This document shows positions 1-64,000 of a stretch of 64,000 nucleotides of DNA, piece after piece (within the stretch, counting starts at the first letter, position 1; every line of letters starts with the position of its first letter). Source of the stretch: an uncultured Acidobacteriota bacterium (lineage in GTDB: Bacteria > Acidobacteriota > Thermoanaerobaculia > Multivoradales > UBA5704); the NCBI GenBank assembly GCA_963770895.1, contig CAVYRF010000002.1:2144001-2208000 (forward strand), in the 5' to 3' direction. The position numbers and the translations under genes are program-made. The notes beneath the pieces were generated by a model that saw only the letters and a program-made list of their open reading frames with translations, had not been told where the DNA came from and searched no databases.

Positions 1-339
1 CGGTTCCTGCTCCTGCTGGTCTGGGCGTTGGTGCAGCAGTTCATCCTGCAGACCACGGTCCTGCGGGAGGTGCGCAGCGCCTGGGGAGAGCGCACGGCGC
101 CGGTGGTGGCGGCGGCGCTCTTCGCCCTGCTTCACCTTCCCAATCCCTTCCTCACCCTGGTCACCTTTGTCGCCGGCCTGGGCTGGTGCCGCCTCTACGA
201 GCGCCACCCCAACCTCATCCCTATCGCGCTCTCGCACGCCTGCGCCAGCCTGGCTGTCGCCCTCGCTCTCAGCCCGGCGATCACCGGCGGCATGCGCGTC
301 GGCTACGGCTACTTCCTCCACCACGGCGTCTGGCTCTGA
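1..339 (+). CDS. CPBP/Abi (CAAX protease-like) intramembrane protein, 5' truncated by window edge
   Basis: Hydrophobic ORF open from the window edge, with QQF..., AALFALLHLPN and ALSHA motifs of the CPBP family; stop TGA at 337-339. Confidence 0.75.
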   Translation, partial: RFLLLLVWALVQQFILQTTVLREVRSAWGERTAPVVAAALFALLHLPNPFLTLVTFVAGLGWCRLYERHPNLIPIALSHACASLAVALALSPAITGGMRVGYGYFLHHGVWL

Positions 340-1123: not shown

Positions 1124-1753
1124 TCAGTGGCCCGGCGTGGGTGAGCCGGCTGGGCAGGCGGCGGCCGGTGGCGGTACGTCGACGCCCTGCTTCTTGAGGT
1201 GCTCGTAGAAGTAGCCGGCGGCGAACTTGTCGTTGGCCGGGGTGGCCGCGGACCAGACCTGGGAGCAGGCGGCCTGGTCGCACTTGCCGCCCAGGGTGCT
1301 CGCGGCGCCGGTGCAGACCGGGCAGGTGCAGGTCGCCCTGTCCCCCTTGGGTCCGTCGACCTTGCATGGCGCGCCGTAGCACCAGGCCCACTTGGTGGAA
1401 TCGCTGGCGCAGGTGAGCGTGCTGTCCTTGACGTCGAAGGCGTTCGAATACGTCGACATGATCGCCATGCCGGGCTTGGGCGGCGTCGTCTGGCTGCGGC
1501 CCTTCACCGTGCACGCCGCCGGCCCCATGGACCAGCCGTTCTCCACGTTGCAGGCGCATTCGACCCGCGTCGGGTCCGACGTCGGACGGCAGAGCGCCTT
1601 GATGCAGAGCGCGTAGTACCCCTGGCAGAATTGAGCGTCACTGGCTCCCATGCTCGCGTTGCACTGCGGCCGGTCCACCGGCCTGTCCGCCGCCAGCGCC
1701 GGTGCGGCCACCAGGCATCCGATCAGCAACGCCAACATACTTCCCTGTCGCAT
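1124..1753 (-). CDS. Secreted cysteine-rich protein (16 Cys in mature part)
   Basis: GGGGAGG RBS, signal peptide MRQGSMLALLIGCLVAAPALA, internal repeat YALCIKALC..ECAC / WAWCYGAPC..TCTC; alternative start at 1759. Confidence 0.75.
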   Translation of the reverse strand: MRQGSMLALLIGCLVAAPALAADRPVDRPQCNASMGASDAQFCQGYYALCIKALCRPTSDPTRVECACNVENGWSMGPAACTVKGRSQTTPPKPGMAIMSTYSNAFDVKDSTLTCASDSTKWAWCYGAPCKVDGPKGDRATCTCPVCTGAASTLGGKCDQAACSQVWSAATPANDKFAAGYFYEHLKKQGVDVPPPAAACPAGSPTPGH

Positions 1754-1949
1754 CGTCATCCTCCCCTCTGGAGAGCGAGGCGGTCGGTACCGCGCGGGGA
1801 TCGCGCGCCCCGGCCCCACTTCGCCTCCGATACAGGTTTTTGTGACGCTAGCATGGATGACACCGCCCGCGCCCGTCCTGCGTCGTGCGTTGCCTTCGTG
1901 CCGGGAGGCGATAGGATTGTCAAGTCGTACCCCACAAGCGGAGAGTCGC

Positions 1950-3650
1950 GTGGTCCCTGAGCAGTCCCTGTACCGCCTGTACGTCGTCCCCGCGGCCGGC
2001 GCTCCGTTCGAGCGGGCGCTCGACGGCGAATCGCTGGTCGTCGGGCGCGCCGCCTCCGCCGACCTGGTGATCGAGGACCTGTTCCTCTCGCGCCACCACT
2101 CGCGCTTCTTCCGCCGCGGCGACCGGCTGTTCGTCGAGGACCTGGGCTCGCGCAACGGTACCCTGGTCAACGGCCGCGCCATCGCCGAGCCTACCGAGGT
2201 GCGGCCCGGCGACGCGGTGCAGATCTCCGGCAGCGTCCTCACCGTGGCGCGTCCGCTGCCTGCCTCCGGCGCCGCCGGAGGCTTCGCGGGAAGCGACCTC
2301 GGCGGCGACTTTCCCGAGGGCGACGGCACGGTGATGATGGGACGCGACGCGGCGGCGATCTTCCGCCCGGCGGCCCAGCTCCTCGACAGCGCCCCGACGG
2401 CGGTGCACTACGCCGAGCAGCTCAAGATCCTCAACGAGGTCCATCACGCCCTGAGCCGGCCCATCCATCAGCGGGCGCTGCTCGACCTGATCCTGGACCG
2501 GGTGTTCGATCACCTGCGCCCGGAACAGGGGGTGATCTACCTGAAGGGCGCCGACGGCGGCCTCCACCCGCAGGCCAGCCGCTCGGTCGACGACGCCCAG
2601 GACCAGCTGCTGGCCTCGCGCAGCCTGGCGCGCGAGGTCGCCGGCCGCGGCCTGGCGGCGCTGGTGCTCGACGCCCAGACCGACGCCCGCTTCGCCGGCG
2701 CCCAGAGCATCACCCTCTCCGGCGTGCGCAGCCTGCTCGCCGCGCCGCTGCTCGAAAGCGGCGCCGGCGGCACCCTCGGCATGATCGTCCTGGGCTCCAA
2801 GATCACCGTGCGCCAGTTCACCGAGGCCGACATGGAGCTGCTCGTTTCGCTCGCCTCGGTCGCCGCCCTCTACCTGCGCAACCTCGCCTTGGCCGAGGAG
2901 GCCGCCGAGCGCCGCCGTCTGGCCGACGAGCTCGAGCTGGCGCGCCAGATCCAGCTGGCCCTGCTGCCGACGCAGCTCCCCACCCTGCCCGGCTACGACC
3001 TGCACGCCGGCAATCAGCCCTCGCGCGGCGTCTCGGGCGACTTCTACGCCGTCACGCCGCGCCGCGACGGCGCCGAGTGCGTCGTCGTCATCGCCGACGT
3101 CTCGGGCAAGGGCATGGCCGCCTCCCTGCTCACCGCCAGCCTGGAAGCGTTCGCCGCCGGCCCCATCGAGGACGGCCTGGGGGCCGAGGAGATCTGCGCC
3201 CGCCTTTCGCGGCTGCTCTTCCGCCGCACGCCGCCCGCCAAATACGCCACCGCCTTTGTCGGCGTCCTGGACCTGGCGACCGGTGCCTGCCGCTACGCCA
3301 ACGCCGGCCACAACCCGCCGCTGCTGGTCCGCGCCGGCGGCGACGTCGAGCCCCTGGCCGCCACCGGCGTCCCCATCGCTCTGCTCGCCACGGCCGACTA
3401 CACCGCCGCCACCGTCACCCTCGCCCCCGGCGACACGCTCGTCCTCTACACCGACGGCATCGTCGAGGCCACCGACCCCGACGACCAGGAGTACGGCGAC
3501 CAGCGTCTCACCGACCTGGTCCGCCGCCACCGCGCCGACGCCTGCCCCGCCCTCGCCGACGCTCTGGAAGCCGACCTGGAAGCCTTCGTCCGCGGCACCC
3601 CTTTCGCCGACGACCGCACCCTCATCTTGCTACGCCGCTTCCCTGGCTGA
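1950..3650 (+). CDS. FHA-GAF-SpoIIE (PP2C, RsbU-like) serine phosphatase
   Basis: FHA motifs (VGR, LSRHH, DLGSRNGTLVNG), GAF (VRSLLAAPL), PP2C motifs SGDFY, ADVSGKG, NAGHNPP, LYTDG, DDRT; GTG start with GGAG RBS. Confidence 0.9.
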   Translation: MVPEQSLYRLYVVPAAGAPFERALDGESLVVGRAASADLVIEDLFLSRHHSRFFRRGDRLFVEDLGSRNGTLVNGRAIAEPTEVRPGDAVQISGSVLTVARPLPASGAAGGFAGSDLGGDFPEGDGTVMMGRDAAAIFRPAAQLLDSAPTAVHYAEQLKILNEVHHALSRPIHQRALLDLILDRVFDHLRPEQGVIYLKGADGGLHPQASRSVDDAQDQLLASRSLAREVAGRGLAALVLDAQTDARFAGAQSITLSGVRSLLAAPLLESGAGGTLGMIVLGSKITVRQFTEADMELLVSLASVAALYLRNLALAEEAAERRRLADELELARQIQLALLPTQLPTLPGYDLHAGNQPSRGVSGDFYAVTPRRDGAECVVVIADVSGKGMAASLLTASLEAFAAGPIEDGLGAEEICARLSRLLFRRTPPAKYATAFVGVLDLATGACRYANAGHNPPLLVRAGGDVEPLAATGVPIALLATADYTAATVTLAPGDTLVLYTDGIVEATDPDDQEYGDQRLTDLVRRHRADACPALADALEADLEAFVRGTPFADDRTLILLRRFPG

Positions 3651-3667: not shown

Positions 3668-4516
3668 TCATCGAGCCTCCTCTCCCGGCCAGCCGAAGCT
3701 GTAGCGCAGCACGTCGGCGACCGCGCGATAGCCGATCCGACGGTAGACCGAGTTCGACGTCGGGTTGATCAGCTCGGTGTAGAGGATGCAGCGAACACCC
3801 TGCGCTCTGAGGGCCTGCGACAGGTGCCCGACGCAGGCGCCCGCATAGCCCTGGCCGCGTGCGCCAGGCGGCGTGTAGACGAACTGAATGCGCACCGTCC
3901 CGGCGACCGGCGTGGAATGGGTGGCCATCGAAACCGGGGTGCCGTCGACGTCCCACATCCAGAAGCGGCCGTCCGAAAGCCTGCGATCGACCACCACTGC
4001 CGGCGCATCGCCCAACTCGTCGACCTCGAGGGCGAAGGCCTGGGTCCAGGCAACCAACCGGTCGCGGTCGTCCAGGCCTGCCCGCCGCAGGCATCCGGCC
4101 ACGCCGTCGCGCAGACGCACCGTGGGGCAGTGATAGAGGCGCAGGCCGCTCACCGGCCGCGCCGGCACCTTGCGGCGCTCCGCCCACTGGCCGGCGAAGC
4201 GGGCCGACGTCGCCGCATCGGCATTGACTCCGGGCACGGCGATCTTCGCCTCAGCGACTGCGTCGGCCAGCGCCTCCACCGATTCGTCATCCATCGGGGT
4301 GAGCAGCAGCGGAAAGTCGAGCGGCGACTGAAAGGCCACGCCGGTCACCATGGCGCCGTTGCGCACCACCCAATAGCGCCCCGGCTCGCTGCCTGCCGCG
4401 CGCTCCTGCAGCAGGCTCAGCACCAGGTTGTGCAGCACCGGCTCGGAGGTCAGGTAGCCGTCCGCCGCGGCCAGCACCTGACCGGCGTCCGCGCTCATCG
4501 TCACATTCAAGCTCAT
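3668..4516 (-). CDS. GNAT family acetyltransferase
   Basis: VYTPPGARGQGYAG acetyl-CoA motif and LYTELINPTSNSVYRRIGY. Confidence 0.88.
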   Translation of the reverse strand: MSLNVTMSADAGQVLAAADGYLTSEPVLHNLVLSLLQERAAGSEPGRYWVVRNGAMVTGVAFQSPLDFPLLLTPMDDESVEALADAVAEAKIAVPGVNADAATSARFAGQWAERRKVPARPVSGLRLYHCPTVRLRDGVAGCLRRAGLDDRDRLVAWTQAFALEVDELGDAPAVVVDRRLSDGRFWMWDVDGTPVSMATHSTPVAGTVRIQFVYTPPGARGQGYAGACVGHLSQALRAQGVRCILYTELINPTSNSVYRRIGYRAVADVLRYSFGWPGEEAR

Positions 4517-4907
4517 CCCCTGATTCTAACGGCGGTCAGGCACCGGCCCAACTGCAGATCGAGCTCCAGCTCTTTGGTACGGCGTTCACGGGGACTGCCA
4601 ACCTGACGAGCGATTTCCTGCCCGCGGAAACGGTGGCGAGTGTCGCCTCGGAGAACCTGTCGGACGGCGGTGACGTTGCTCTTCGGGCAGACCTCCGTTG
4701 CCAGTGTGCATCTGTTTCTTCATGCCAGTGGTTACTTCGAATGTAGCGATGCAAAACGATTTTCTCGGCAAATCCGCGCCGTCGCGGCCTCGCCGATCTG
4801 CTCGGTGCGCCCGGCGCTCAGGAAGCGCATCGCACGAATGCCATAGGTCGATAAGCTTGTGACCTTCGTGGTGAACCTCTATGGTGGATGCAAAAGGAGG
4901 ATCACGC

Positions 4908-5747
4908 GTGCGAAAAATTATTGTTTTCCTGTCCGGAGTGTGTCTGTGTGCAGCGATTGCCGCCGATCGCGCGGCGGCATCTCCAGCCGAAGCCATCCGC
5001 CAGGCGGTGGCCGCAGCGCATCTCAAGCGCGACGGCGCCAAGCCGGAGGCTTGCAGCTTTCTGTCGATCGGCTGCAATCAAACAGTCAACGCGGCGCTTG
5101 GCTCGTCCGGCTGCGCTCTCAGCGACGGCCAGCTGTCGGACCTCTATGCCTTCAATGGCATCACCGGCACCACGGTGACCGCCACGCTCACCAGCGCCGA
5201 TTTCCCACCTTTCCTTGATCTGCTCGATCCGTCGGACAACAGCGCGGGCGACGATGGCGAACCCGTCGTGGCAACGGTGAGCGGAACCCTCTACGCCACT
5301 GGCCAGTGGGTGCTCGGCGTGACCAACTTCAACGAGTTTCTGCAGACGGGCAACTACACCCTGTCGTTGCAGTGCTCGAGCGGCGGAGGCGCCGGCGCCT
5401 GCTCGGCGGACGGCAACACCCTCTGCCTCAACTCCAACCGCTTCAAGGTGACCGCCACCTACAACGCCGGCGCGAGCGGCTCGGGCCAGGCGCATGCCGT
5501 GTCGATGACCGATGACACCGGCTACCTCTGGTTCTTCGCGTCGAACAACGTCGAAACCGTGATCAAGCTCATCGACGGCTGCGGCACCGGCGGCCACTAC
5601 TGGGTCTTCGCCGGCGGGCTCACCAACGTCAATGTCGTGATCACCGTCACCGACACCCAGACAGGCGCCATGAGGACTTACTCCAACCCTCAAGGCACGG
5701 TATTTCAGCCTATCCAGGACACCGCCGCCTTCGCCAGCTGTCCCTGA
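4908..5747 (+). CDS. Secreted protein: PPC-like beta domain plus a C-terminal domain of the type common in Thermoanaerobaculia
   Basis: AAGGAGG RBS, GTG start, signal peptide; DLYAFNG..TVTATLTSADF..LDL (PPC-like); LCLNSNRFKV..DTGYLWFF..NNVE..K.IDGC..YWVFAGGLTNV..TDTQTG. Confidence 0.75.
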   Translation: MRKIIVFLSGVCLCAAIAADRAAASPAEAIRQAVAAAHLKRDGAKPEACSFLSIGCNQTVNAALGSSGCALSDGQLSDLYAFNGITGTTVTATLTSADFPPFLDLLDPSDNSAGDDGEPVVATVSGTLYATGQWVLGVTNFNEFLQTGNYTLSLQCSSGGGAGACSADGNTLCLNSNRFKVTATYNAGASGSGQAHAVSMTDDTGYLWFFASNNVETVIKLIDGCGTGGHYWVFAGGLTNVNVVITVTDTQTGAMRTYSNPQGTVFQPIQDTAAFASCP

Positions 5748-5982: not shown

Positions 5983-7482
5983 ATGACGACAAAGGGATAT
6001 GGGGTGATTGTCATTGGCGCCGGCTCGGCCGGCAGTGTGCTGGTGGGAGAGTTGGCGGCGGCCAGGGCCAGCGTCCTGTTGTTGGAGGCCGGCGGCCCGA
6101 TCGAGGCGTACCCGCAGATCTGGGACCCCAATCAGATCAACTGCCTCTACGACATCTCGGCGATTCACTGGGGATACAAGACCACTCCCCAGGTCAACCT
6201 GGACCAGCGTGTGCTCGACGAGTGGCGGGCCAAGGTGATGGGCGGCTGCAGCTCCCACAACGACATGGTCTATACGCGGGGCGCCCGCGGCGACTTCGAC
6301 GCCTGGGCAAACACCTACGGATGCCCAGGCTGGGACTACGATTCCGTGGCGCCTTCCTTCGACGCCGTCGAAAAGCGGCTCAGGCCCAGGACGACGCAGA
6401 TCAACGGCTTTGGCAAAGCGTTCATCGACACCTGCGTCGACCTGGGGATTCCGTTCAACCCCGACTACAACTCCGGCGGCAGCATGCGCGGAGTGAGCCT
6501 GCTCCAATCGACGATCGAATACAAAGAGGGCTATCAAGCCCCGCGCCGGGTGACCAGCTTCGATCGCTACGTCAAGCCGGTGATGGACGCGCCGAACGTC
6601 ACGGTCGTCGGCGGGGCGCTGGTGACCCGAGTGATCATCGACGCGAAAGGCCGCGCGACCGGCGTCGAGTACGTGGTCGATGGGCGCTCCGAGATTGCCT
6701 CGGCCGGCGAGGTCGTGCTGTGCGCTGGGGCGATCAACAGCCCCAAGATCCTGATGCTGTCCGGCGTCGGCGATCCCAAGGAGCTGGCTCGGACAGGGAT
6801 CCCCGTCGTTGCCGAGATCCCGGCCGTCGGGACCAACATGCAGAACGCGATCATCTTCCTGGCCAACTGGAAGTCCGCTCAGCCGATCAAGGGCCAGCCG
6901 GTCAACGAGGGATGCGCGATCGTGTGGGACAACATGATCGACGACGATCAGCCCATGACCTGCCTCGAAATGATGTGCGGCCAATATACCTGCGATCAGT
7001 CGCCCGCCGAGCTCGAAGGTTTCTATAGCGTCAGCGGCGGCGCCATGCGCCTTCTCAGCAAGGGTTCTGTCACCTTGGCTTCGAACGACCCTGCCGTGGC
7101 GCCGATCATCGATCCCCGTCTCCTCTCGGTGCAGGAAGACTACGATCAGTGCCTGGCCGCGTACTCCCTCATGCTCAAGGTCGGCAACGCTCCCGGCCTC
7201 GCGGACTGGCGCGCCGGGCAGGTCAATCCCGCGCCGGGGACCAAGCCCGCCGATTGGTTGCTGAGCAACATCTACAGCTACAGCCATCCGGTGGGGACCT
7301 GCGCCATGGGGTCGGGGCCGGCGGCGGTCGTCGATCCGGCGACCCTCACCGTGCACGGTCTATCTGGTTTGCGGGTCGCCGACGTTTCGATCATGCCCCG
7401 CATCACCTCCGGCCACACCCAGGGGCCGGCGTTCATGATCGGCCACCGGGCCGCCAGGATGATCCTGGGGCACTCGGGATAA
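5983..7482 (+). CDS. GMC family FAD oxidoreductase (choline oxidase/dehydrogenase-like)
   Basis: VIGAGSAG dinucleotide motif, RAKVMGGCSSHN, GAINSPKILMLSGVG, HPVGTCAMG, GLRVADVSIMP; GGAGG RBS. Confidence 0.92.
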   Translation: MTTKGYGVIVIGAGSAGSVLVGELAAARASVLLLEAGGPIEAYPQIWDPNQINCLYDISAIHWGYKTTPQVNLDQRVLDEWRAKVMGGCSSHNDMVYTRGARGDFDAWANTYGCPGWDYDSVAPSFDAVEKRLRPRTTQINGFGKAFIDTCVDLGIPFNPDYNSGGSMRGVSLLQSTIEYKEGYQAPRRVTSFDRYVKPVMDAPNVTVVGGALVTRVIIDAKGRATGVEYVVDGRSEIASAGEVVLCAGAINSPKILMLSGVGDPKELARTGIPVVAEIPAVGTNMQNAIIFLANWKSAQPIKGQPVNEGCAIVWDNMIDDDQPMTCLEMMCGQYTCDQSPAELEGFYSVSGGAMRLLSKGSVTLASNDPAVAPIIDPRLLSVQEDYDQCLAAYSLMLKVGNAPGLADWRAGQVNPAPGTKPADWLLSNIYSYSHPVGTCAMGSGPAAVVDPATLTVHGLSGLRVADVSIMPRITSGHTQGPAFMIGHRAARMILGHSG

Positions 7483-7499: not shown

Positions 7500-9233
7500 T
7501 CACCTGCTGGCTGGAGGGTCGAGCCACTGCCCGGCAGGCAGATTCAAGGTGCAGACGTGGGACAGTCCGTGGGCGGCGGTCCAGCGGTCCACCAGATCGG
7601 GATATTGGGGGGCCTGGGGGTTTTCCAGGTGCCAGCCGGGAGGGGTGAAGCCGCTGTAGCCGTTGACCGTGGGCAGCGTCAGGCGCTCGGCGATCAGCAT
7701 GGCGTCAATCTGCAGCGCGATGGGGCTGGTCGGCCGGAGCGGCGAAGACTGGCGAATCGCAAAGCTCTGGCAGCGCGGGCCCGGGCTGGGAATCGACGCC
7801 AGGCGTGCCAGCTCCTGCTGGCGATGGACGCCATGGGTCCGGGTCAGGTTGACCTCCTCGAAGGCCAGCCAGGCGCTGACCGCGACGATCGCGGCAAGGG
7901 CCAGGCGCCGGCGCGGCTCGCTGCTCCAGGCTGCGCGCGCGGTGATTGTTTCCCAGGCCGTGGAGAGCGCGGCGATCACGACCACCACCATGGCCAGGCT
8001 CAGCTGATATTGAAAGCGGAAGGTCTGACGGATTGCGACGGCGCCGGGCACGATGCGCCAGACCAGGTACCAGAGCGAACCGCTCTGGGTTCGGCAGAGC
8101 AGAGCCCAGGCCGCGAAGATCGACGCCGCGGTCGAGGCCAGCAGCACCGCGCGCAGCTCGCCGCGCCGGCGCGCCAGCCGCTGAGCGCCGGAACAGAGCA
8201 GCACGCAGCTGGCGGCGAAGGCGATGAGCAGGCCGGGCGGCAGGCCGTAATCCCAGCCCACGTTGGCATACCTTGGGTCCAGGCGGCGCATCAGCCAACC
8301 CCAGGCGACGTTGCGAGTGCTGACGTTGAAAAGGTCGCCGAAGGTCATGGCGTTGCGTGTCACCTCGGCGTACGATCGCGCCTGGCCGGCGGCGATGGCC
8401 GGCCCGTAGGTGACGATGAAGGGCGCCAGCGCCAGCGCGGCCGCGGCTCCCAGGTAGAGAATCGATCGCCAGCTGCTGGCGACCAAGGCCAGGTAGCGTG
8501 AGGCCATCCGCCATTGGATCGACACGGCGATGGCTGCCGCGATGGCGGTGAAGAAGAGCAAGAACCAGCCGGTGTAGAAGTCGGAAAAGAGAATCAATGA
8601 AAAGAGGGCGCCGGCCGCGCTCAACCAGGCAGGCGCGCTTGCGGCGCGGCCCGCTCCGGCCTTGGCGCCCTTGACCAGGCACAATAAGAACAGGGGCACC
8701 AGCATGATGGTGTAGGCCTGCGGCAGCACCCGCGAATGCAGCAGGTTGGAAAAAACGCAGAGCAGGGCGCCGAGGATGGCGAAGCCGCGGCCAAAGCCGA
8801 AATTGCGGAGCAGCCCGATCGTCGAGGCATAGCCGACTTGCGTCAGCAGCCAGAGCGTCAGCTCGAACGCGACGTACGGATCGCAGCCAGTGAAGCGGAG
8901 CGCCGAGTACGGCAGCGATTGCAGGAAAAAAGTGGCGGAGTATGCCAGGACGTGCTGGACAGGAAAGAAGAAGGGCGGCGACAGCCAGTCGTCCAGGCCG
9001 CGATAGACGTTGTGCCAGTGTTCCAATAGCGCCAGGGTCAACCGGGCATCGCCGAAGTCGCCGGCGATGAGCTCGCCGCGGGAGACGATGAACTCGCCAA
9101 AACAGAGGCCGCTTGCCACCAGGCTGACAACCACTGCCGCGGCGTAGAAGCCGCCGGTGGACCACTCCCGGCCGCCGCGCTCGCCGCGAAGACACTGGCC
9201 GCCGCGGCCCTGTTCCGACCGACGCTTCGCCAT
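7500..9233 (-). CDS. Polytopic membrane protein, putative GT-C-type glycosyltransferase
   Basis: N-terminal TM then GDFGDARL..EHW..PPFFFP..LAYS, about 10 TM segments, C-terminal PTVNGYSGFTP periplasmic motif. Confidence 0.65.
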   Translation of the reverse strand: MAKRRSEQGRGGQCLRGERGGREWSTGGFYAAAVVVSLVASGLCFGEFIVSRGELIAGDFGDARLTLALLEHWHNVYRGLDDWLSPPFFFPVQHVLAYSATFFLQSLPYSALRFTGCDPYVAFELTLWLLTQVGYASTIGLLRNFGFGRGFAILGALLCVFSNLLHSRVLPQAYTIMLVPLFLLCLVKGAKAGAGRAASAPAWLSAAGALFSLILFSDFYTGWFLLFFTAIAAAIAVSIQWRMASRYLALVASSWRSILYLGAAAALALAPFIVTYGPAIAAGQARSYAEVTRNAMTFGDLFNVSTRNVAWGWLMRRLDPRYANVGWDYGLPPGLLIAFAASCVLLCSGAQRLARRRGELRAVLLASTAASIFAAWALLCRTQSGSLWYLVWRIVPGAVAIRQTFRFQYQLSLAMVVVVIAALSTAWETITARAAWSSEPRRRLALAAIVAVSAWLAFEEVNLTRTHGVHRQQELARLASIPSPGPRCQSFAIRQSSPLRPTSPIALQIDAMLIAERLTLPTVNGYSGFTPPGWHLENPQAPQYPDLVDRWTAAHGLSHVCTLNLPAGQWLDPPASR

Positions 9234-9316
9234 CCAGGGTTCTCCTCAGTCCAGGTCCGCGCGAATCGCCAGGGGAGTATATTCGCGGCCGCTCTGGACG
9301 GCGCGCTTCTGGCGCG

Positions 9317-9345
9317 TTGATGGAGCCGCGAGGCACAGGTATAGA
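9317..9345 (+). promoter_or_regulatory. Sigma70-like promoter upstream of the RiPP precursor
   Basis: TTGATG-N17-TATAGA, about 80 bp upstream of ATG 9424. Confidence 0.45.
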
Positions 9346-9423
9346 GGATGGACTGCCGCTGTGCCGCGCAGATCCGCGCGGCGGCGGGCGCCCTGAAAAC
9401 GGCCTCGACCATGGAGACGTGAG

Positions 9424-9597
9424 ATGAAAAAGAACGTCAGGAAGCTCCAGCTCAATCGCGAGACCCTGCACTTCCTCAGGTTCACGGACGTGACCGGCGG
9501 CGCCACCGCGACGGTCTGCTCCAGGATTTGCGGCGTCACCGACGGCGGCGGCGGCGTTTGCACAGGAGCCCATTGCACAGGAGCCGATTGCAACTAG
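9424..9597 (+). CDS. Lanthipeptide-like RiPP precursor peptide (57 aa; absent from the ORF track)
   Basis: MKKNVRKLQLNRETLHFLRFTDVTGG-ATATVCSRICGVTDGGGGVCTGAHCTGADCN*; GGAG RBS at 9413-9416; KLxLNRETL leader, double-Gly site, core with 5 Cys and 6 Ser/Thr. Confidence 0.85.
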   Translation: MKKNVRKLQLNRETLHFLRFTDVTGGATATVCSRICGVTDGGGGVCTGAHCTGADCN

Positions 9598-9692
9598 CAG
9601 AGGATGTCGGGTGAACCACGGCGACGGCGGTGAAAGCCGCCGCCGCCGCGCCCCGAGGTCCCACCGCCGTTGCCCTGCAACGAGCGCCCGTC

Positions 9693-10094
9693 TCAGGGTT
9701 CCGCGGCGCGCTGCGCAGTCCCGAAGTCATGGAACACGCGGAACAGATTGCCGTCCAGATCTGCCGCGGTAAACTCGAACAAGCCCCACTGCTTCGGCTC
9801 CGGTGCGGATATCAATTTGACGCCGCTGGCGCTCCACGCGCGATACAGCTCATCCACGTCAGCGTTGCTCTCCAGATTCAGCCAGACCAGTGCCGGCCCG
9901 GCGTTGCCATATCCCTTGCGGTATTCCTGACTCGCCAGAAAGATCCGGCAGCTGCCCCTTGAAACACCTGCCAGTCCGAGCTCCTCGCCGCCCCAATCGA
10001 GCGTGAAGCCCAGGTTGGTTTGGTAGTAAGCCGCCGCTCGCTTCATGTCTTTGACCGGTATCTCGGGAACGGCGCTCGGAAACTCTGCGTTCAT
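9693..10094 (-). CDS. VOC/glyoxalase/bleomycin-resistance family protein
   Basis: AAGGAG RBS then MNAEFPSAVPEIPVKDMKRAAAYY..LGF, VDELY, PEPKQWGLFEFTAADLDGN. Confidence 0.85.
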   Translation of the reverse strand: MNAEFPSAVPEIPVKDMKRAAAYYQTNLGFTLDWGGEELGLAGVSRGSCRIFLASQEYRKGYGNAGPALVWLNLESNADVDELYRAWSASGVKLISAPEPKQWGLFEFTAADLDGNLFRVFHDFGTAQRAAEP

Positions 10095-10096
10095 GG

Positions 10097-11117
10097 TCAC
10101 TCCTTGGTCGCCGGCACGGCAAGGGCGGCGCCGATGGTTGCCGGCTCGACCGGGGGCGCCGCCCTGGCGGAGCGATCGGTCGATGGCGTCCAGCAGGCGC
10201 ACGACGCGCAGGCCGGATGCGCCGTCCGAGATGGGGCGGTTGCCGGTCTTGATGGCGCGCACCAGGTCGGCGACGGCCAGGGCCAGGGGCTCGCACGCGT
10301 CGTTGCAGGGGAGGTCACGGCCGGCGTCGAAGACGCCGGCTCTCCAGGGCGGGGCGTCGAAGATGCGCAGCTTTTCCTGGGACGCGAGGTCGTCCCAGAG
10401 AACGGTGCGGCGGTCGCCTCCCAGGAGGATGCGCCGCTGTTTGAAGGGGGCGACCCAGCTGACGTGGAGGTGGGCCAGCAAGCCCGAGGGGTAGCGCAGG
10501 GTGATGAAGGCCAGGGCGGCGCTGCCGTCCGCCAGGTGGCCGGCGGCATGTGCCGAGATCGCCTCGGGCGACTCCTGCCGCAGCAGGCGGTCGAGCAGCG
10601 CCAGGTCGTGCACCGCGAGGTCCCAGGCCACGTTGACGTCGCTGCGCACCCGCCCCTGCGCGATGCGCGTCGAATCGTAGTAGGTCAGCGCGCCGAGGTC
10701 GCCGCGGTCCACCAGGTCGGCGAGGCGGGAAAACGCCGGCGCGAAGAGGTAGGTATGGTCCACCAGCAGGACCCGGCCGCGCCGGGCGGCTTCCGCGACC
10801 AGGCGCTCGGCGTCTTCGACCCGCGTCGCCAGGGGCTTTTCGACCCACACGTGGAGGCCCGCGGCCAGCGCCCTCCGCGCCAGCGGGAAATGGGAGCCGG
10901 CCGGCGTCGCGACGACGACGGCATCCAGGGTGCCATCGGTCAGGAGGTCCACGTCGCGCGCCACCACGCGCGTTTCTGGATGGTCGCGTGCGGCCAGCGC
11001 GCGCCGGGCGGCATCCGGGTCCCCCACGACCGCCAGGGTCACGGCCGGGTGCGCCCGGAGATTGCGGGCGATGAGGCTCCCCCAAAGGCCGAAGCCCAGC
11101 AGGCCGACGCGGATCAT
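10097..11117 (-). CDS. Gfo/Idh/MocA NDP-sugar oxidoreductase (WlbA/WbpB-like); probable +1 indel near the 3' end
   Basis: MIRVGLLGFGLWG, VATP..H, HVWVEKPLA, WDLAVHD; as read it runs in frame into the VOC gene, but removing one base of the G5 run at 10152-10156 gives ...APVEPATIGAALAVPATKE* ending at 10097. Confidence 0.85.
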
Positions 11118-11587
11118 CGCGCGTCGCCGGGCGGGTGCAGCCGCGCCGGCACTCCTGCCACGACGGCGCCGGGCGGCACGTCGCGGGTCACCACGGCGCC
11201 GGCGCCCACCAGCGCTCCGGCGCCGATCTCGACTCCGCACAGCACCACCGCGCCGCTGCCCAGCGAGGCGCCGCGGCCCACCCGGGTGGGCGTGAGCTTC
11301 CAGTCGTCAGCGGTCTGCAGGCGCCCGGCGGCCGTGGCGCGCGGATACCGGTCGTTGATGAACAGGACGCCGTGGCCGACGAACACCTCGTCCTCGAGCG
11401 TCACGCCGGAGCATAGGAAGCTGTGCGAGGAGACCTTGCAGCGCCGGCCGACGCGCGCGCCGCGCTGGATCTCGACGAAGGCGCCGATCCGGCTGCCGTC
11501 GCCGATCGTGCAACCATACAGATTCACCAGGCCGGGCTGGGGGATGTCCACCCCCTCGCCCAGGACCACGTCGGCGGCAATCGGCAC
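11114..11587 (-). CDS. Hexapeptide-repeat NDP-aminosugar N-acyltransferase (FdtC/QdtC/WlbB-like)
   Basis: VNLYGCTIGDGSRIGAFVEIQ..CKVSSHSFLCSGV..GHGVLFIND.YPRA, left-handed beta-helix repeats. Confidence 0.88.
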   Translation of the reverse strand: MPIAADVVLGEGVDIPQPGLVNLYGCTIGDGSRIGAFVEIQRGARVGRRCKVSSHSFLCSGVTLEDEVFVGHGVLFINDRYPRATAAGRLQTADDWKLTPTRVGRGASLGSGAVVLCGVEIGAGALVGAGAVVTRDVPPGAVVAGVPARLHPPGDAR

Positions 11588-20465: not shown

Positions 20466-20810
20466 TCACTGCTTCGGCTTCCACAAGCCAACGGTGTTGC
20501 CTTCGAGGTCCTGGAACCAGGCGAAAGTGCCCGTCGGAATATCCACCGGCGGGACAAGGGTCTTCGCGCCGAGCGCATTGGCCTTTTGCAGCGCGGCGGC
20601 GACGTCGTCGACGCCGACATAGAAAATCGTGTAGTGATGCGGTTCGTGGCCGAGCGCGGTGATGTGCCCCGTGATGCCGCCGGCTTCTGCCGCGATCATC
20701 GCCGCCGGACCCATGGCGTCGATCTTCCAGTCGAAGAGCTGCTGGTAGAATTCCTGCGTCTTCGCCAAATCCTTGCAACCGATCTCAAAATGCACCACCG
20801 CATGGGCCAT
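20466..20810 (-). CDS. VOC/glyoxalase family protein
   Basis: AGGAG RBS; MAHAVVHFEI..QEFYQQLFDW..FYVGVDDV..GTFAWFQDLEGNTVGLW. Confidence 0.9.
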   Translation of the reverse strand: MAHAVVHFEIGCKDLAKTQEFYQQLFDWKIDAMGPAAMIAAEAGGITGHITALGHEPHHYTIFYVGVDDVAAALQKANALGAKTLVPPVDIPTGTFAWFQDLEGNTVGLWKPKQ

Positions 20811-20878
20811 CTGGTTCTCCTGGTTCTTGCGCGTTGGAAGCCGAACACGACGCTGCCGCGGAAGCTGCTCATCGTAAC

Positions 20879-20904
20879 CGACCTGGTATTCCATCACCAG
20901 GTCG
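20879..20904. promoter_or_regulatory. Inverted repeat upstream of the VOC gene, possible operator
   Basis: CGACCTGGT-N8-ACCAGGTCG, perfect 9-bp arms; a second hairpin CGCTTGAC-TCGC-GTCAAGCG lies at 20933-20952. Confidence 0.4.
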
Positions 20905-23640: not shown

Positions 23641-24538
23641 ACAAAGCTGTATGCGCCAGCGCACTTCGACCCCGTACTCAAGCGTCATGACCTGCCCCAA
23701 CACCAAAGCTCCCGACCATGGTAGGCTCTTCCACCCTAACGACAGCGAAGCGGCGCTTGCGTTCGGTCTCCGGCGCCGGATGACTGCAACGATGGTTGCG
23801 CAGGGGCTGCGTCCGCGGATTTGCTGCCCCTCACACCCGCACCCGCTATCGTTTGAAGGTCCAGAATTCTGGGAGTAGCCGAAAGGTGCGGCCGCGAAAG
23901 GCGGCGAGGAGGAGCGCGGTGGGCGCGGTGCGGCGGCAGGGCCGCGGAGACGCCGGTCGCCTCGGGGTGGTGGCGTCGTCGTCTAGCAAGGCGATTGGAC
24001 GACTGATGCCCGCCGCTGCGGACGCCGTGATCACCAGTCGGTCCAGGCGCCCTTCTGCCGCTGGGCCAATTGCCGCCTCCGCTCGGCCGGCGTGGCGTAC
24101 ACCCGCGGCGGCGTTTTCCGCGGACGCCTGTTGAAGTAGCCGTCGGCCGAGCGGCCCGCCGGCGCAGAGATCCGGGCCGGCCTGTTCGCCGTGGAGGCGC
24201 GCTCGCGCAGCGCATCAGCCTCATCTCATGAAACCAAAGGCACTTACGCGCGCCGGACCCCGTAATCGCCCGGAGCGTCGCACAGCAGCCAGCATCATCT
24301 TCCGCTCGGTCGGCTGCTGCGGTGGGCGTTGCCGCACCCGCAACACGGTCCAGGTGAGCACTCGCAAAGGGTCTGCTGTGCCGCCGCAGCGAACTCCTCT
24401 CCACCGCGCTCCTCGACCCTGCTGTTAGGCTATAGAATTGTGAACCGGAAAGCTTGAAGTCCCTGGCGCCGCTTCCATGGTGGCCAGCAGGGGTGCCGGG
24501 AAGGCCTGGCCCATTTCCGGGGAAGAGGCTTGAGAGCG

Positions 24539-25927
24539 ATGCTTACGCGACTGAGAGTCAACGGCTTCAAGAACCTCGTCGAGGTGGATCTGCGGTTTGG
24601 TCCCTTCACTTGCATCGCCGGCGTAAACGGCGTTGGAAAGTCCAATCTCTTCGACGTGATCGGCTTCCTGGCAGCACTATCTGAGAAGACCTTGCTCGAT
24701 GCGGCACTGTCCGTTCGCAGTGAGGGGAGTAAGACTTCGGACCTGCGTGGCATTTTTAATCGGGTGGGCGATCGCTATTCCGACGAGATCTCCCTGGATG
24801 CGGAGATGCTTGTATCAGATTCAGGCGTTGACGACCTTGGGCAGGAGGCCAGAGCCGCAATCACCTTCCTGAGCTACGGCTTGACAATCGGCCTTGAAGG
24901 CTCCGGCTTGGCAATTCGCAGGGAGGAGCTTAAGCACATCACCGTCGGCGAAGCCAAAAAGAACCTGCTATTCCCCCATACCCAAAGCTGGCGGAAGTCG
25001 GTTGTCACGGGGCGCCGCGCAAGCCCATTCATCTCGACGGAGCGCTCAGGAAGCTCGACGATCATCAAGCTTCACCAAGACGTGGGCAAGAATTACAAAG
25101 GAGGAGGACGTCCTCACACCTATGTAGCTGGACGCCTGCCTCGTACAGTATTATCTGAGGCGAATTCCTCGGATAGCGCGACTGCAGTCCTCGCTCGCCG
25201 CGAGATGCAATCGTGGAGACTGTTGCAGCTCGAGCCTTCTGGGCTACGTCAGCCTGACCGCTTCATCGCACCGCGGTCGATCGCCCGCAACGGCGCCCAC
25301 CTGCCGGCGACGCTAGCTCGTCTTGCTCACCTCAACATTGTTCCCGGCATAGCTTCGCCTGCCAGCTCTCACGGCGACTTGCCGGACCACGCGGCAACTG
25401 TCTATGCGCGAGTTGCCAATCGGCTTTCTGAGCTCATCGAGGACGCCCGATCGGTGCGGGTCGTAGTTGACGACCGACGTGAGCTATTAAGCCTATTGCT
25501 GACTGAGCGTAACGGGACCGAGCACGAGGCGCAATCTCTCTCCGACGGTACGCTCCGCTTTCTGGCATTGGCAATTCTTGAGACCGACTCTGATGCGAAA
25601 GGTGTTTTGTGCCTGGAAGAGCCAGAAAATGGGATTCATCCTCGCCGGGTACCGGCAATGCTGCGCTTGCTACAGGACTTGGCCGTCGATCCCCAAGTGC
25701 CGGTAAGCATGGAAAATCCACTGCGCCAAGTCATCGTCAATACCCATTCGCCGGCTGTGGCGGCACAAGTTCCCGAGGATTGCCTGCTCGTCGGCGTCCA
25801 GCATGCCGTCGAGAAGGAGGGCCGCCGCGCCAACACCGTCGCCTTTCATTCGTTGCCCGGCACCTGGCGGGCGCGAGAAGCTTCCGGGCTGGCACCGATT
25901 GCAATGGGAGAAGTCGCAATGGGCTGA
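24539..25927 (+). CDS. ABC/AAA_21-type ATPase, C-terminus probably truncated
   Basis: GFKNL, Walker A GVNGVGKSN, signature LSDGTLRFLA, Walker B LCLEEPENGIHP, H-loop NTHSP; visibly lower GC than flanks. Confidence 0.88.
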   Translation: MLTRLRVNGFKNLVEVDLRFGPFTCIAGVNGVGKSNLFDVIGFLAALSEKTLLDAALSVRSEGSKTSDLRGIFNRVGDRYSDEISLDAEMLVSDSGVDDLGQEARAAITFLSYGLTIGLEGSGLAIRREELKHITVGEAKKNLLFPHTQSWRKSVVTGRRASPFISTERSGSSTIIKLHQDVGKNYKGGGRPHTYVAGRLPRTVLSEANSSDSATAVLARREMQSWRLLQLEPSGLRQPDRFIAPRSIARNGAHLPATLARLAHLNIVPGIASPASSHGDLPDHAATVYARVANRLSELIEDARSVRVVVDDRRELLSLLLTERNGTEHEAQSLSDGTLRFLALAILETDSDAKGVLCLEEPENGIHPRRVPAMLRLLQDLAVDPQVPVSMENPLRQVIVNTHSPAVAAQVPEDCLLVGVQHAVEKEGRRANTVAFHSLPGTWRAREASGLAPIAMGEVAMG

Positions 25928-26432
25928 TCTGCGCGCCCTTCGGTCACCGCCAAGGAGCCTGCGAGACAGGGTGCAGACCGCGGTTCAATTGTATCCGTGC
26001 GACCTTCTGTTCATTCACCGAGATGCAGAGAGCATGTCCCTTGATTCGCGCAGGGCTGAAATACGCGGACAGTTGGATGAGCGGACGGGGCCGCCCGTGA
26101 TTTGCGTCATCCCCGTTCGCATGCAGGAGGCATGGTTTCTTTTTAATGAAAATGCGATTCGTGAGGCTGCGGGCAATCCCCGCGGAAGGGTGCCCCTCGA
26201 CTTGCCCAGGCTGGATGAAATCGAGTCGCATCCCGACCCTAAGGGGGTCATCCATGGTTGCCTGCGCAGCGCAAGCGGGTTGCCGCCCCGGCGCGGTTTC
26301 AAGGTGGCTACCGCGTTCCAGCGACTGGCAGGGTTGATTGACGATTTCACGCCGCTGCGCAGCTTGGCCGCTTTTCAGGTCTTGGAGGCAGCGGTCGAGC
26401 GCGTCCTCGATGAGCGATCCTGGCGGGACTGA
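25912..26432 (+). pseudogene. DUF4276-like (TOPRIM-like) protein lacking its N-terminus
   Basis: SQWADL..PCDLLFIHRDAE..VIPVRMQEAWFL..AIREAAGNP..PDPK..LAAFQ; no start codon/RBS or N-terminal acidic motif upstream of SQWADL. Confidence 0.6.
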
Positions 26433-27343: not shown

Positions 27344-27438
27344 TCCGTCCTATACAGGACGCTCAGTGTACGCCGTGAAGAGCCAGCTTTAACTGAAGTT
27401 CAAATGCGCGCAGGTAGGGGCCGTGATTTTAGAATATC

Positions 27439-64000
<36,562 letters not shown>

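Follow-up and report, generated by a model that had tools for sequence, protein, structure and literature searches.

A stand-alone gene for a putative lanthipeptide-type precursor in an uncultured Acidobacteriota bacterium

Many class I LanAs of Bacteroidetes carry the leader motif LxLxKx5L instead of FxLD, as described by Walker et al. (2020, PMC7268733). Such leaders often end in Gly-Gly and the cluster often has a C39 protease, while prochlorosin genes are described as distant from their LanM (PMC7268733). A third system comes from Thermoanaerobaculia, in which two GMC oxidoreductases, ThaO and TheO, are reported in a 2026 paper to form thiazoles in precursors rich in Cys; the 'the' cluster also includes a GNAT, and TheO is active without the lanthionine synthetase (PMC13083261). 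The closest analogues of the peptide described below are the first two, the Bacteroidetes LxLxKx5L precursors for the logic of the leader and the prochlorosins for a dispersed organisation.

The window, by which we mean the whole stretch of 64 kb that was analysed, contains one small gene for a peptide of 57 residues. Like the Bacteroidetes/pinensin-type precursors of the NF038153 model, this peptide has an MKK start, an L-x-L-x-basic-x5-L motif, a Gly-Gly end to its predicted leader and a short putative core rich in Cys, Ser and Thr, and its relatives adjoin LanB, LanC and C39 exporters. It differs from them in having Arg for Lys in the motif, in a distance from motif to Gly-Gly that is 3 residues under the family mode, in phylum (58 of the 66 loci of its family are from Acidobacteriota), and in standing without such enzymes within 9 kb upstream and 54 kb downstream.

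Its family resembles the prochlorosins in combining a conserved leader with hypervariable cores, in occurring as more than one copy per genome, and in that many of the members are far from a synthetase. Unlike the prochlorosins (ProcM, Nif11 leader), the family has a non-Nif11 leader and class I enzymes, LanC and LanB, rather than LanM; the window itself holds a single copy and no LanM. The precursors ThaA and TheA resemble the window peptide in a Cys-rich core, in a GMC oxidoreductase nearby and in belonging to the lineage of most of its relatives, but the class II mersacidin-type leader, the G-C-G motif and the LanM described for them are all absent from our case (PMC13083261).

The peptide gene and its signals

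The peptide gene occupies a gap of 460 bp between two minus-strand genes, divergent from that of a 577-aa membrane protein and convergent with that of a GFO/IDH/MocA oxidoreductase. The features of the window that the argument needs are as follows.

1-336 (+): fragment of a CPBP/Rce1-like protease, cut by the window start, 9 kb from the peptide
520-1053: PIN protein
1635-3647: FHA-GAF-PP2C phosphatase
3671-4525: GNAT
4875-5744: unknown ORF
5983-7479 (+): GMC-family FAD oxidoreductase (PF00732 + PF05199), choline-dehydrogenase-like (PRK02106, 309 bits)
7503-9233 (-): 577-aa membrane protein, with an Atlas feature score of 0.99 to YfhO-family and DUF6311 clusters
9317-9345 (+): promoter candidate TTGATG-17-TATAGA, 8/12 consensus matches, unsupported beyond chance
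9413-9416 (+): Shine-Dalgarno sequence GGAG, 7 nt 5' of the ATG, read from the sequence
9424-9597 (+): putative precursor peptide gene, 57 codons plus stop (ORF list, sequence, GC3, nine close relatives)
9424-9501 (+): predicted leader, residues 1-26, starting MKK, with K7-L-Q-L-N-R-E-T-L15 and L18 and ending at G25-G26
9502-9594 (+): predicted core, residues 27-57, with 5 Cys (32, 36, 46, 51, 56), 6 Ser/Thr and 7 Gly
9619-9648 (no strand assigned): GC-rich hairpin by RNA fold, between the stop of the peptide gene and that of the convergent gene
9696-11240 (-): GFO/IDH/MocA oxidoreductase (Pfam), 3' of the peptide gene
after the peptide gene (-): hexapeptide acetyltransferase, GT2 (260 aa), DegT aminotransferase
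after the DegT group: NAD-dependent sugar epimerase/dehydratase
27.4 kb to the window end: NRPS genes

The 57-aa ORF reported in the initial annotation is found at 9424-9597 (+), with a sequence identical to the one quoted there. The window has a G+C content of 72.5%, and the coding character of the ORF was tested because chance long ORFs are frequent at such a base composition. The G+C fractions at codon positions 1, 2 and 3 of the ORF are 0.52, 0.53 and 0.83, as in the real genes of the window, a pattern seen in none of the seven ORFs that overlap it. The initial annotation described the gene as missed by the ORF caller. The exact protein is present in a predicted-protein collection (one contig, 5,832,828 bp), so at least one gene caller had found the gene. 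Judged by its sequence and its relatives, the ORF is a genuine gene that is selected at the protein level.

Of the two expression signals first proposed for the gene, the ribosome-binding site stands. Besides the GGAG at 9413-9416, an SD-like motif occurs in 65 of the 69 upstream regions of the leader family described below, with AGGAGA counted 31 times against 3.1 expected. The sigma70-like promoter of its own is unsupported: the promoter scan called 0 promoters, and when the 200 nt upstream were shuffled 300 times, 13.7% of the shuffled sequences scored as well as the TTGATG-17-TATAGA candidate with its 8 matches in 12. The TATAGA element lies between the arms of a 17-nt inverted repeat (9322-9338 / 9359-9375, 82% complementary, 20 nt between the arms), a candidate operator or 5' hairpin upstream of the peptide gene.

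Downstream, the RNA fold of 9595-9680 reaches -44.2 kcal/mol (z = -2.9 against shuffles). The hairpin at 9619-9648, which lacks a U tract and was not called by the terminator scan, is a possible bidirectional terminator. Rfam gave no match in the window at gathering scores and none in 9100-9800 at E <= 1.

Across the 64 kb, searches with Pfam and NCBIfam models over all coding-like ORFs and the gaps between them yielded no domain of the LanB, LanC, LanM, radical-SAM, YcaO or C39 type, in agreement with the first reading of the sequence. A six-frame motif search found no second copy of the leader in the window.

A leader family of Acidobacteriota

We scanned a species-representative genome collection with a back-translated K-L-Q-L-x-R-E-T-L-x-x-L pattern, which gave 104 matches at 98 loci. 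Small ORFs account for 71 of the matches: they are 40-100 aa long, start at most 15 codons before the motif and have a Cys-containing tail, and most begin with MKK. The other 33 matches, which lie inside large ORFs, in very short ORFs or in Cys-free ORFs (e.g. L007, L014, L073), were excluded. The 71 small ORFs represent 66 loci and 69 distinct sequences (L077 repeats L044). The shared motif is circular as evidence, because the family was gathered with that very pattern; independent evidence is limited to the MKK start, the position of Gly-Gly, the size and the Cys-rich tails.

By record title, the 58 loci from Acidobacteriota are mostly from Thermoanaerobaculia and Holophagae; three others belong to Candidatus Eisenbacteria, one to Longimicrobiaceae, and the remaining four have no classification. 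Although the pattern is narrow, 17 assemblies hold at least two separate loci, and up to four. As a predicted precursor, the window peptide belongs to a large, mainly acidobacterial family with a common leader and hypervariable cores. Our literature search turned up no account of this leader family of Acidobacteriota or of the solitary placement of its genes.

Two other core types of the family were seen in passing. Five loci (L017, L033, L053, L064, L082) carry a distinct single-Cys precursor subfamily with the same leader and a near-identical core, ...VPIKDT[IV]VRP[ST]DACGTPT...; its neighbours are a tyrosinase and an M61 peptidase in L017 and a protein with an M61 N-terminal domain in L053. 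An HtrA-like protease (Trypsin_2 + PDZ), which recurs in three loci, adjoins, in divergent orientation, precursors of the ...CGSDANT.C... core type (L011:10374-12038, L029:9899-11998).

The nearest relatives of the window peptide came from protein searches. A word-based search found P0002, of 57 aa and 66% identity, and an exhaustive search found P0005, of 55 aa. A profile of these two with the window peptide added seven more members of 55 aa (E 1e-16 to 1e-20), together with weaker leader look-alikes. All nine close relatives, 55-57 aa long, have five Cys and a C-terminal CTGAxC[ND]. A scan of the species-representative collection for this close family, based on the three-sequence alignment, gave 115 pattern matches, of which 0 were confirmed.

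Aligned with these nine and with L035 (alignment A4, 11 sequences), the window peptide shows the invariant residues M1, K3, L10, R12-E-T-L15, L18, G25, T28, C32, C46, C51, T52 and C56, with G48, G53 and A54 kept in at least 90% of the sequences. Five Cys are present in 11 of 11. The core of the window peptide ends in C-T-G-A-H-C-T-G-A-D-C-N, and with P0002 it shares the core type GG-ATAT.C...ICGVTDGG...CTGAHCTGADCN. The remaining nine sequences follow G[QN]-NPSILPPCTAAVPC[ST]LTC.GA.CTGA.C[ND], of which L035 has a variant. L035 offers the closest core type with a readable context, and its DNA could be compared directly: the two leaders agree at 17 of 26 residues, and at 5 of these 17 the codons differ synonymously.

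The assignment of the leader to a class was made at the level of the family. In the window peptide, L8-x-L10-x-R12-x5-L18 followed by G25-G26 is the LxLxKx5L...GG motif with Arg for Lys. The class I lanthipeptide leader model NF038153 (lant_leader_L1a) is its sole NCBIfam match and a weak one, at 14.5 bits and E 0.03 over residues 1-15, below the cutoff of 22; P0002 scores 18.8 bits. The family set used here has 78 members, made up of the 69 distinct precursors without L068, which is truncated at its end, and the ten of the close family; NF038153 matches 67 of them at E <= 0.1, with a best E of 4e-9, and of the 11 members of the A4 subfamily just 4 are touched by it. The low score of the window peptide follows from its spacing: Gly-Gly lies 18 residues after the K of KLQL, 3 short of the mode of 21 that is found in 47 of the 69 family members.

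Other models match fewer of the 78, namely NF038158, a second class I leader model, 10 and TIGR04149, the GG leader of rSAM-modified RiPPs, 8. Pfam matched neither the window peptide nor, as far as leaders go, any of the 78, and Nif11- and NHLP-type leader models of NCBIfam and Pfam gave no match with the window peptide. An Atlas search with the peptide returned best scores of 0.86-0.87, which are leads at most; one of the matched clusters is labelled 'class I lanthipeptide family', and 50% of its members carry PF28317.

The claim of a class I lanthipeptide leader, made at the outset, is thus supported for the family, by the motif, by NF038153 and by the LanC and LanB neighbours presented below, and not for the peptide by itself (14.5 against 22 bits). 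We describe the window peptide as a predicted precursor of class I leader type rather than as a certified member, because it misses the curated cutoff.

Enzymes near the relatives

All ORFs of at least 200 aa at the 66 loci were clustered without prior labels, and the cluster representatives were annotated by Pfam. The most recurrent neighbours are LanC-like cyclases and Ser/Thr kinases, at 9 loci each; smaller clusters consist of C39-peptidase ABC exporters, full-length LanB dehydratases, histidine kinases (4 loci), MacB permeases and CHAT-TPR proteins. With local HMMs, LanC is found within 10 kb in 10 of the 66 precursor loci, LanB in 3 (L032, L048, L074) and ABC exporters in 7. Neither LanC nor LanB occurs in any of 32 control loci, which are chance pattern matches covering 373 kb. 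The exporter ('PCAT') HMM also matches 2 of these 32, so that we count as PCATs only the cases in which Pfam confirms the C39 domain, L021 and L032.

In five aligned LanCs (alignment A2) the Cys...Cys-His zinc triad is kept, with C284, C333 and H334 invariant; this triad is described as the feature that distinguishes true LanC cyclases from look-alikes (PMC10352776). The precursor directly adjoins LanC in three loci, as two-gene modules at L010:6288-10053, L039:8532-10546 and L041:8616-10150, with no LanB within 10 kb, while L048 and L074 have both LanB and LanC. The modules without LanB suggest that dehydration is either split off or follows an as yet unrecognised route. In L010, LanC is followed by a same-strand gene for a Ser/Thr kinase-TPR protein. 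Locus L048, with its LanB and LanC, has a gene for a CPBP/Rce1-like intramembrane protease (L048:7713-8609) 1.4 kb from the precursor.

Most members of the family stand alone, as does the window gene. Thirty-seven distinct precursors are well flanked, with at least 5 kb on both sides. A LanC-like gene is found within 10 kb of 7 of them (L010, L028, L039 twice, L041, L048, L074), two of which have LanB as well, and 30 of the 37 have neither LanB nor LanC within that distance. For 28 well-flanked precursors, including L028 with its LanC fragment at the locus edge, we considered the two nearest genes per side; by Pfam, Lan, radical-SAM, YcaO and C39 domains are present in 0 of these 101 proteins, and the neighbours are heterogeneous.

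Three assemblies, with prefixes DATHUD, DATFPH and DASUNJ, hold one LanC-linked and one unlinked locus each. The leaders of enzyme-linked and unlinked relatives do not separate by identity, which at free positions is 0.20 against 0.18.

Proposed maturation in trans and its alternatives

We propose that the window gene encodes a lanthipeptide-type precursor that is matured in trans by enzymes encoded elsewhere in the genome, and we give this reading a probability of about 0.5. The reason for placing maturation in trans is the solitary position of the gene, which most of its relatives share. The leader would recruit a dehydratase and a LanC cyclase from elsewhere in the genome; these would dehydrate Thr and Ser residues and join them to the five Cys in thioether rings, with the invariant T52 and C56 as a candidate pair. 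Cleavage after Gly-Gly and secretion of the product would then fall to a C39-type exporter, whose gene would also lie elsewhere. We infer all the steps that follow translation of the peptide.

The material for (methyl)lanthionine rings is present: the 31 residues after G25-G26 comprise 5 Cys and 6 Ser/Thr (1 Ser, 5 Thr), as the initial annotation had counted. As it matches the organisation of the family, maturation in trans is a plausible mechanism and, on comparative grounds, the best supported one. The leader alone does not settle the chemistry, since 8 of the 78 family members also match TIGR04149.

A wider version of the proposal is more tentative. The Thermoanaerobaculia-like Acidobacteriota might possess a class I counterpart of the prochlorosin system, in which one trans-acting lanthionine machinery, made of LanC with LanB or with an unrecognised dehydratase, would serve a genome-wide library of stand-alone, hypervariable KLQLxRETL...GG precursors, the window peptide among them. 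If one enzyme set does serve many dispersed precursors, the chemical diversity of lanthipeptides in Acidobacteriota, a phylum already noted for its rich biosynthetic potential, is underestimated. Cluster-based mining detects RiPP precursors beside enzymes only; the window gene and most of its relatives would therefore be overlooked or left as 'hypothetical'. The leader could also be a handle for the making of peptide libraries. At present the window peptide counts as an unannotated representative of a leader type already known, with a putative product.

The alternative that survives best, though we hold it to be distinctly less probable than thioether formation in trans, is a peptide with a double-glycine leader for which a C39 ABC transporter would serve as both exporter and protease and which would acquire no thioether rings, a bacteriocin-like or signalling peptide either disulfide-bonded or unmodified. 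GG leaders also serve unmodified bacteriocins. In favour of this reading are the 30 of 37 relatives without LanB or LanC nearby, the 101 neighbour genes devoid of maturase domains, and the kinases and regulators frequent among the neighbours (Ser/Thr kinases at 9 loci, histidine kinases at 4). It is at odds with the specific enrichment of LanC and LanB (10 and 3 loci out of 66, and none among the 32 controls) and with the invariant number of Cys, which at five is odd and a misfit for a purely disulfide-bonded peptide; the window, moreover, lacks an exporter too.

Returning to lanthipeptide-type maturation, its rings might in principle be replaced by another RiPP chemistry encoded elsewhere, for instance that of a radical-SAM enzyme acting on the Cys residues. 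The TIGR04149 matches of 8 of the 78 family members and the spacing of the last three Cys, one at every fifth residue, point in this direction. Yet the subfamily of the window peptide matches neither TIGR04149 nor a Cys-every-fifth model at E <= 10, and no radical-SAM enzyme appears among the recurrent neighbour clusters, the 101 nearest neighbours or the window, so that we find this chemistry improbable.

Still less probable is the conversion of the peptide's Cys into thiazole by the GMC oxidoreductase at 5983-7479, after the manner of ThaO and TheO in the Thermoanaerobaculia RiPP clusters. The setting invites the comparison: the GMC gene lies 1.9 kb upstream of the peptide, GNAT and GMC genes are both within 6 kb, and the 'the' cluster is in the same assembly as loci L008, L050 and L069. 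In the experiments described for TheO, however, the enzyme requires Gly flanking the Cys on both sides, and the changes G-1A and G2A impair it (PMC13083261). G-C-G occurs in 0 of the 11 subfamily members; the core of the window peptide has I-C36-G only, and Gly-Cys is absent from the nine relatives of 55 aa. The ThaA and TheA leaders, as that paper presents them, are of the mersacidin type and class II, unlike the window leader (PMC13083261). Moreover, the GMC protein of the window scores best with choline dehydrogenase models, the ORF before its gene is not TheB-like, an oppositely oriented gene separates it from the peptide gene, and by tblastn it matches 0 of the 98 related loci.

The 577-aa membrane protein between the GMC gene and the peptide gene matches no Pfam or NCBIfam model; from its likeness to YfhO and DUF6311 clusters we take it to be a putative glycosyltransferase of the GT-C type. 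Sublancin, a glycocin, has five Cys, one of them S-glycosylated. Glycosylation of the window peptide by its neighbours, which the first annotation had raised as an option and for which the flanking GT2, DegT aminotransferase, acetyltransferase, oxidoreductase and YfhO-like membrane protein might speak, can be set aside as very improbable indeed: by tblastn none of these sugar genes recurs at the 98 related loci, L035 has housekeeping genes on both sides, for pyruvate phosphate dikinase and for glycyl-tRNA synthetase beta, the sugar genes, all of them on the strand opposite to that of the peptide, jointly resemble an ordinary surface-glycan module, and the GT2 has just 260 aa, presumably short for a peptide S-glycosyltransferase.

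Nine window proteins compared with the 98 loci by tblastn revealed no common synteny, with two unrelated weak matches. The sugar genes therefore look like a surface-glycan module that is adjacent by chance. Within it, the single ORF at 9696-11240 (-) fuses the GFO/IDH/MocA part (residues 43-360) to a glyoxalase/bleomycin-resistance-like domain (394-501), and a second glyoxalase-fold protein is encoded at 20469-20897.

Farther downstream, the stretch 24530-26400 has a lower GC content, 57-62% against 72.5% overall, and may represent a small defence or mobile island; at 24530-25924 it encodes an AAA_21/AAA_15 (AbiEii-like) ATPase. The rest of the window is taken up by a very large NRPS in two ORFs on the plus strand, 27433-32163 and 31731-64000. 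The first encodes 1577 aa with the order C-A-T-C. The second has an embedded methyltransferase near 61.9-62.3 kb besides at least 10 adenylation, 9 condensation and 10 carrier domains, and it is open for more than 10,757 aa up to the window end.
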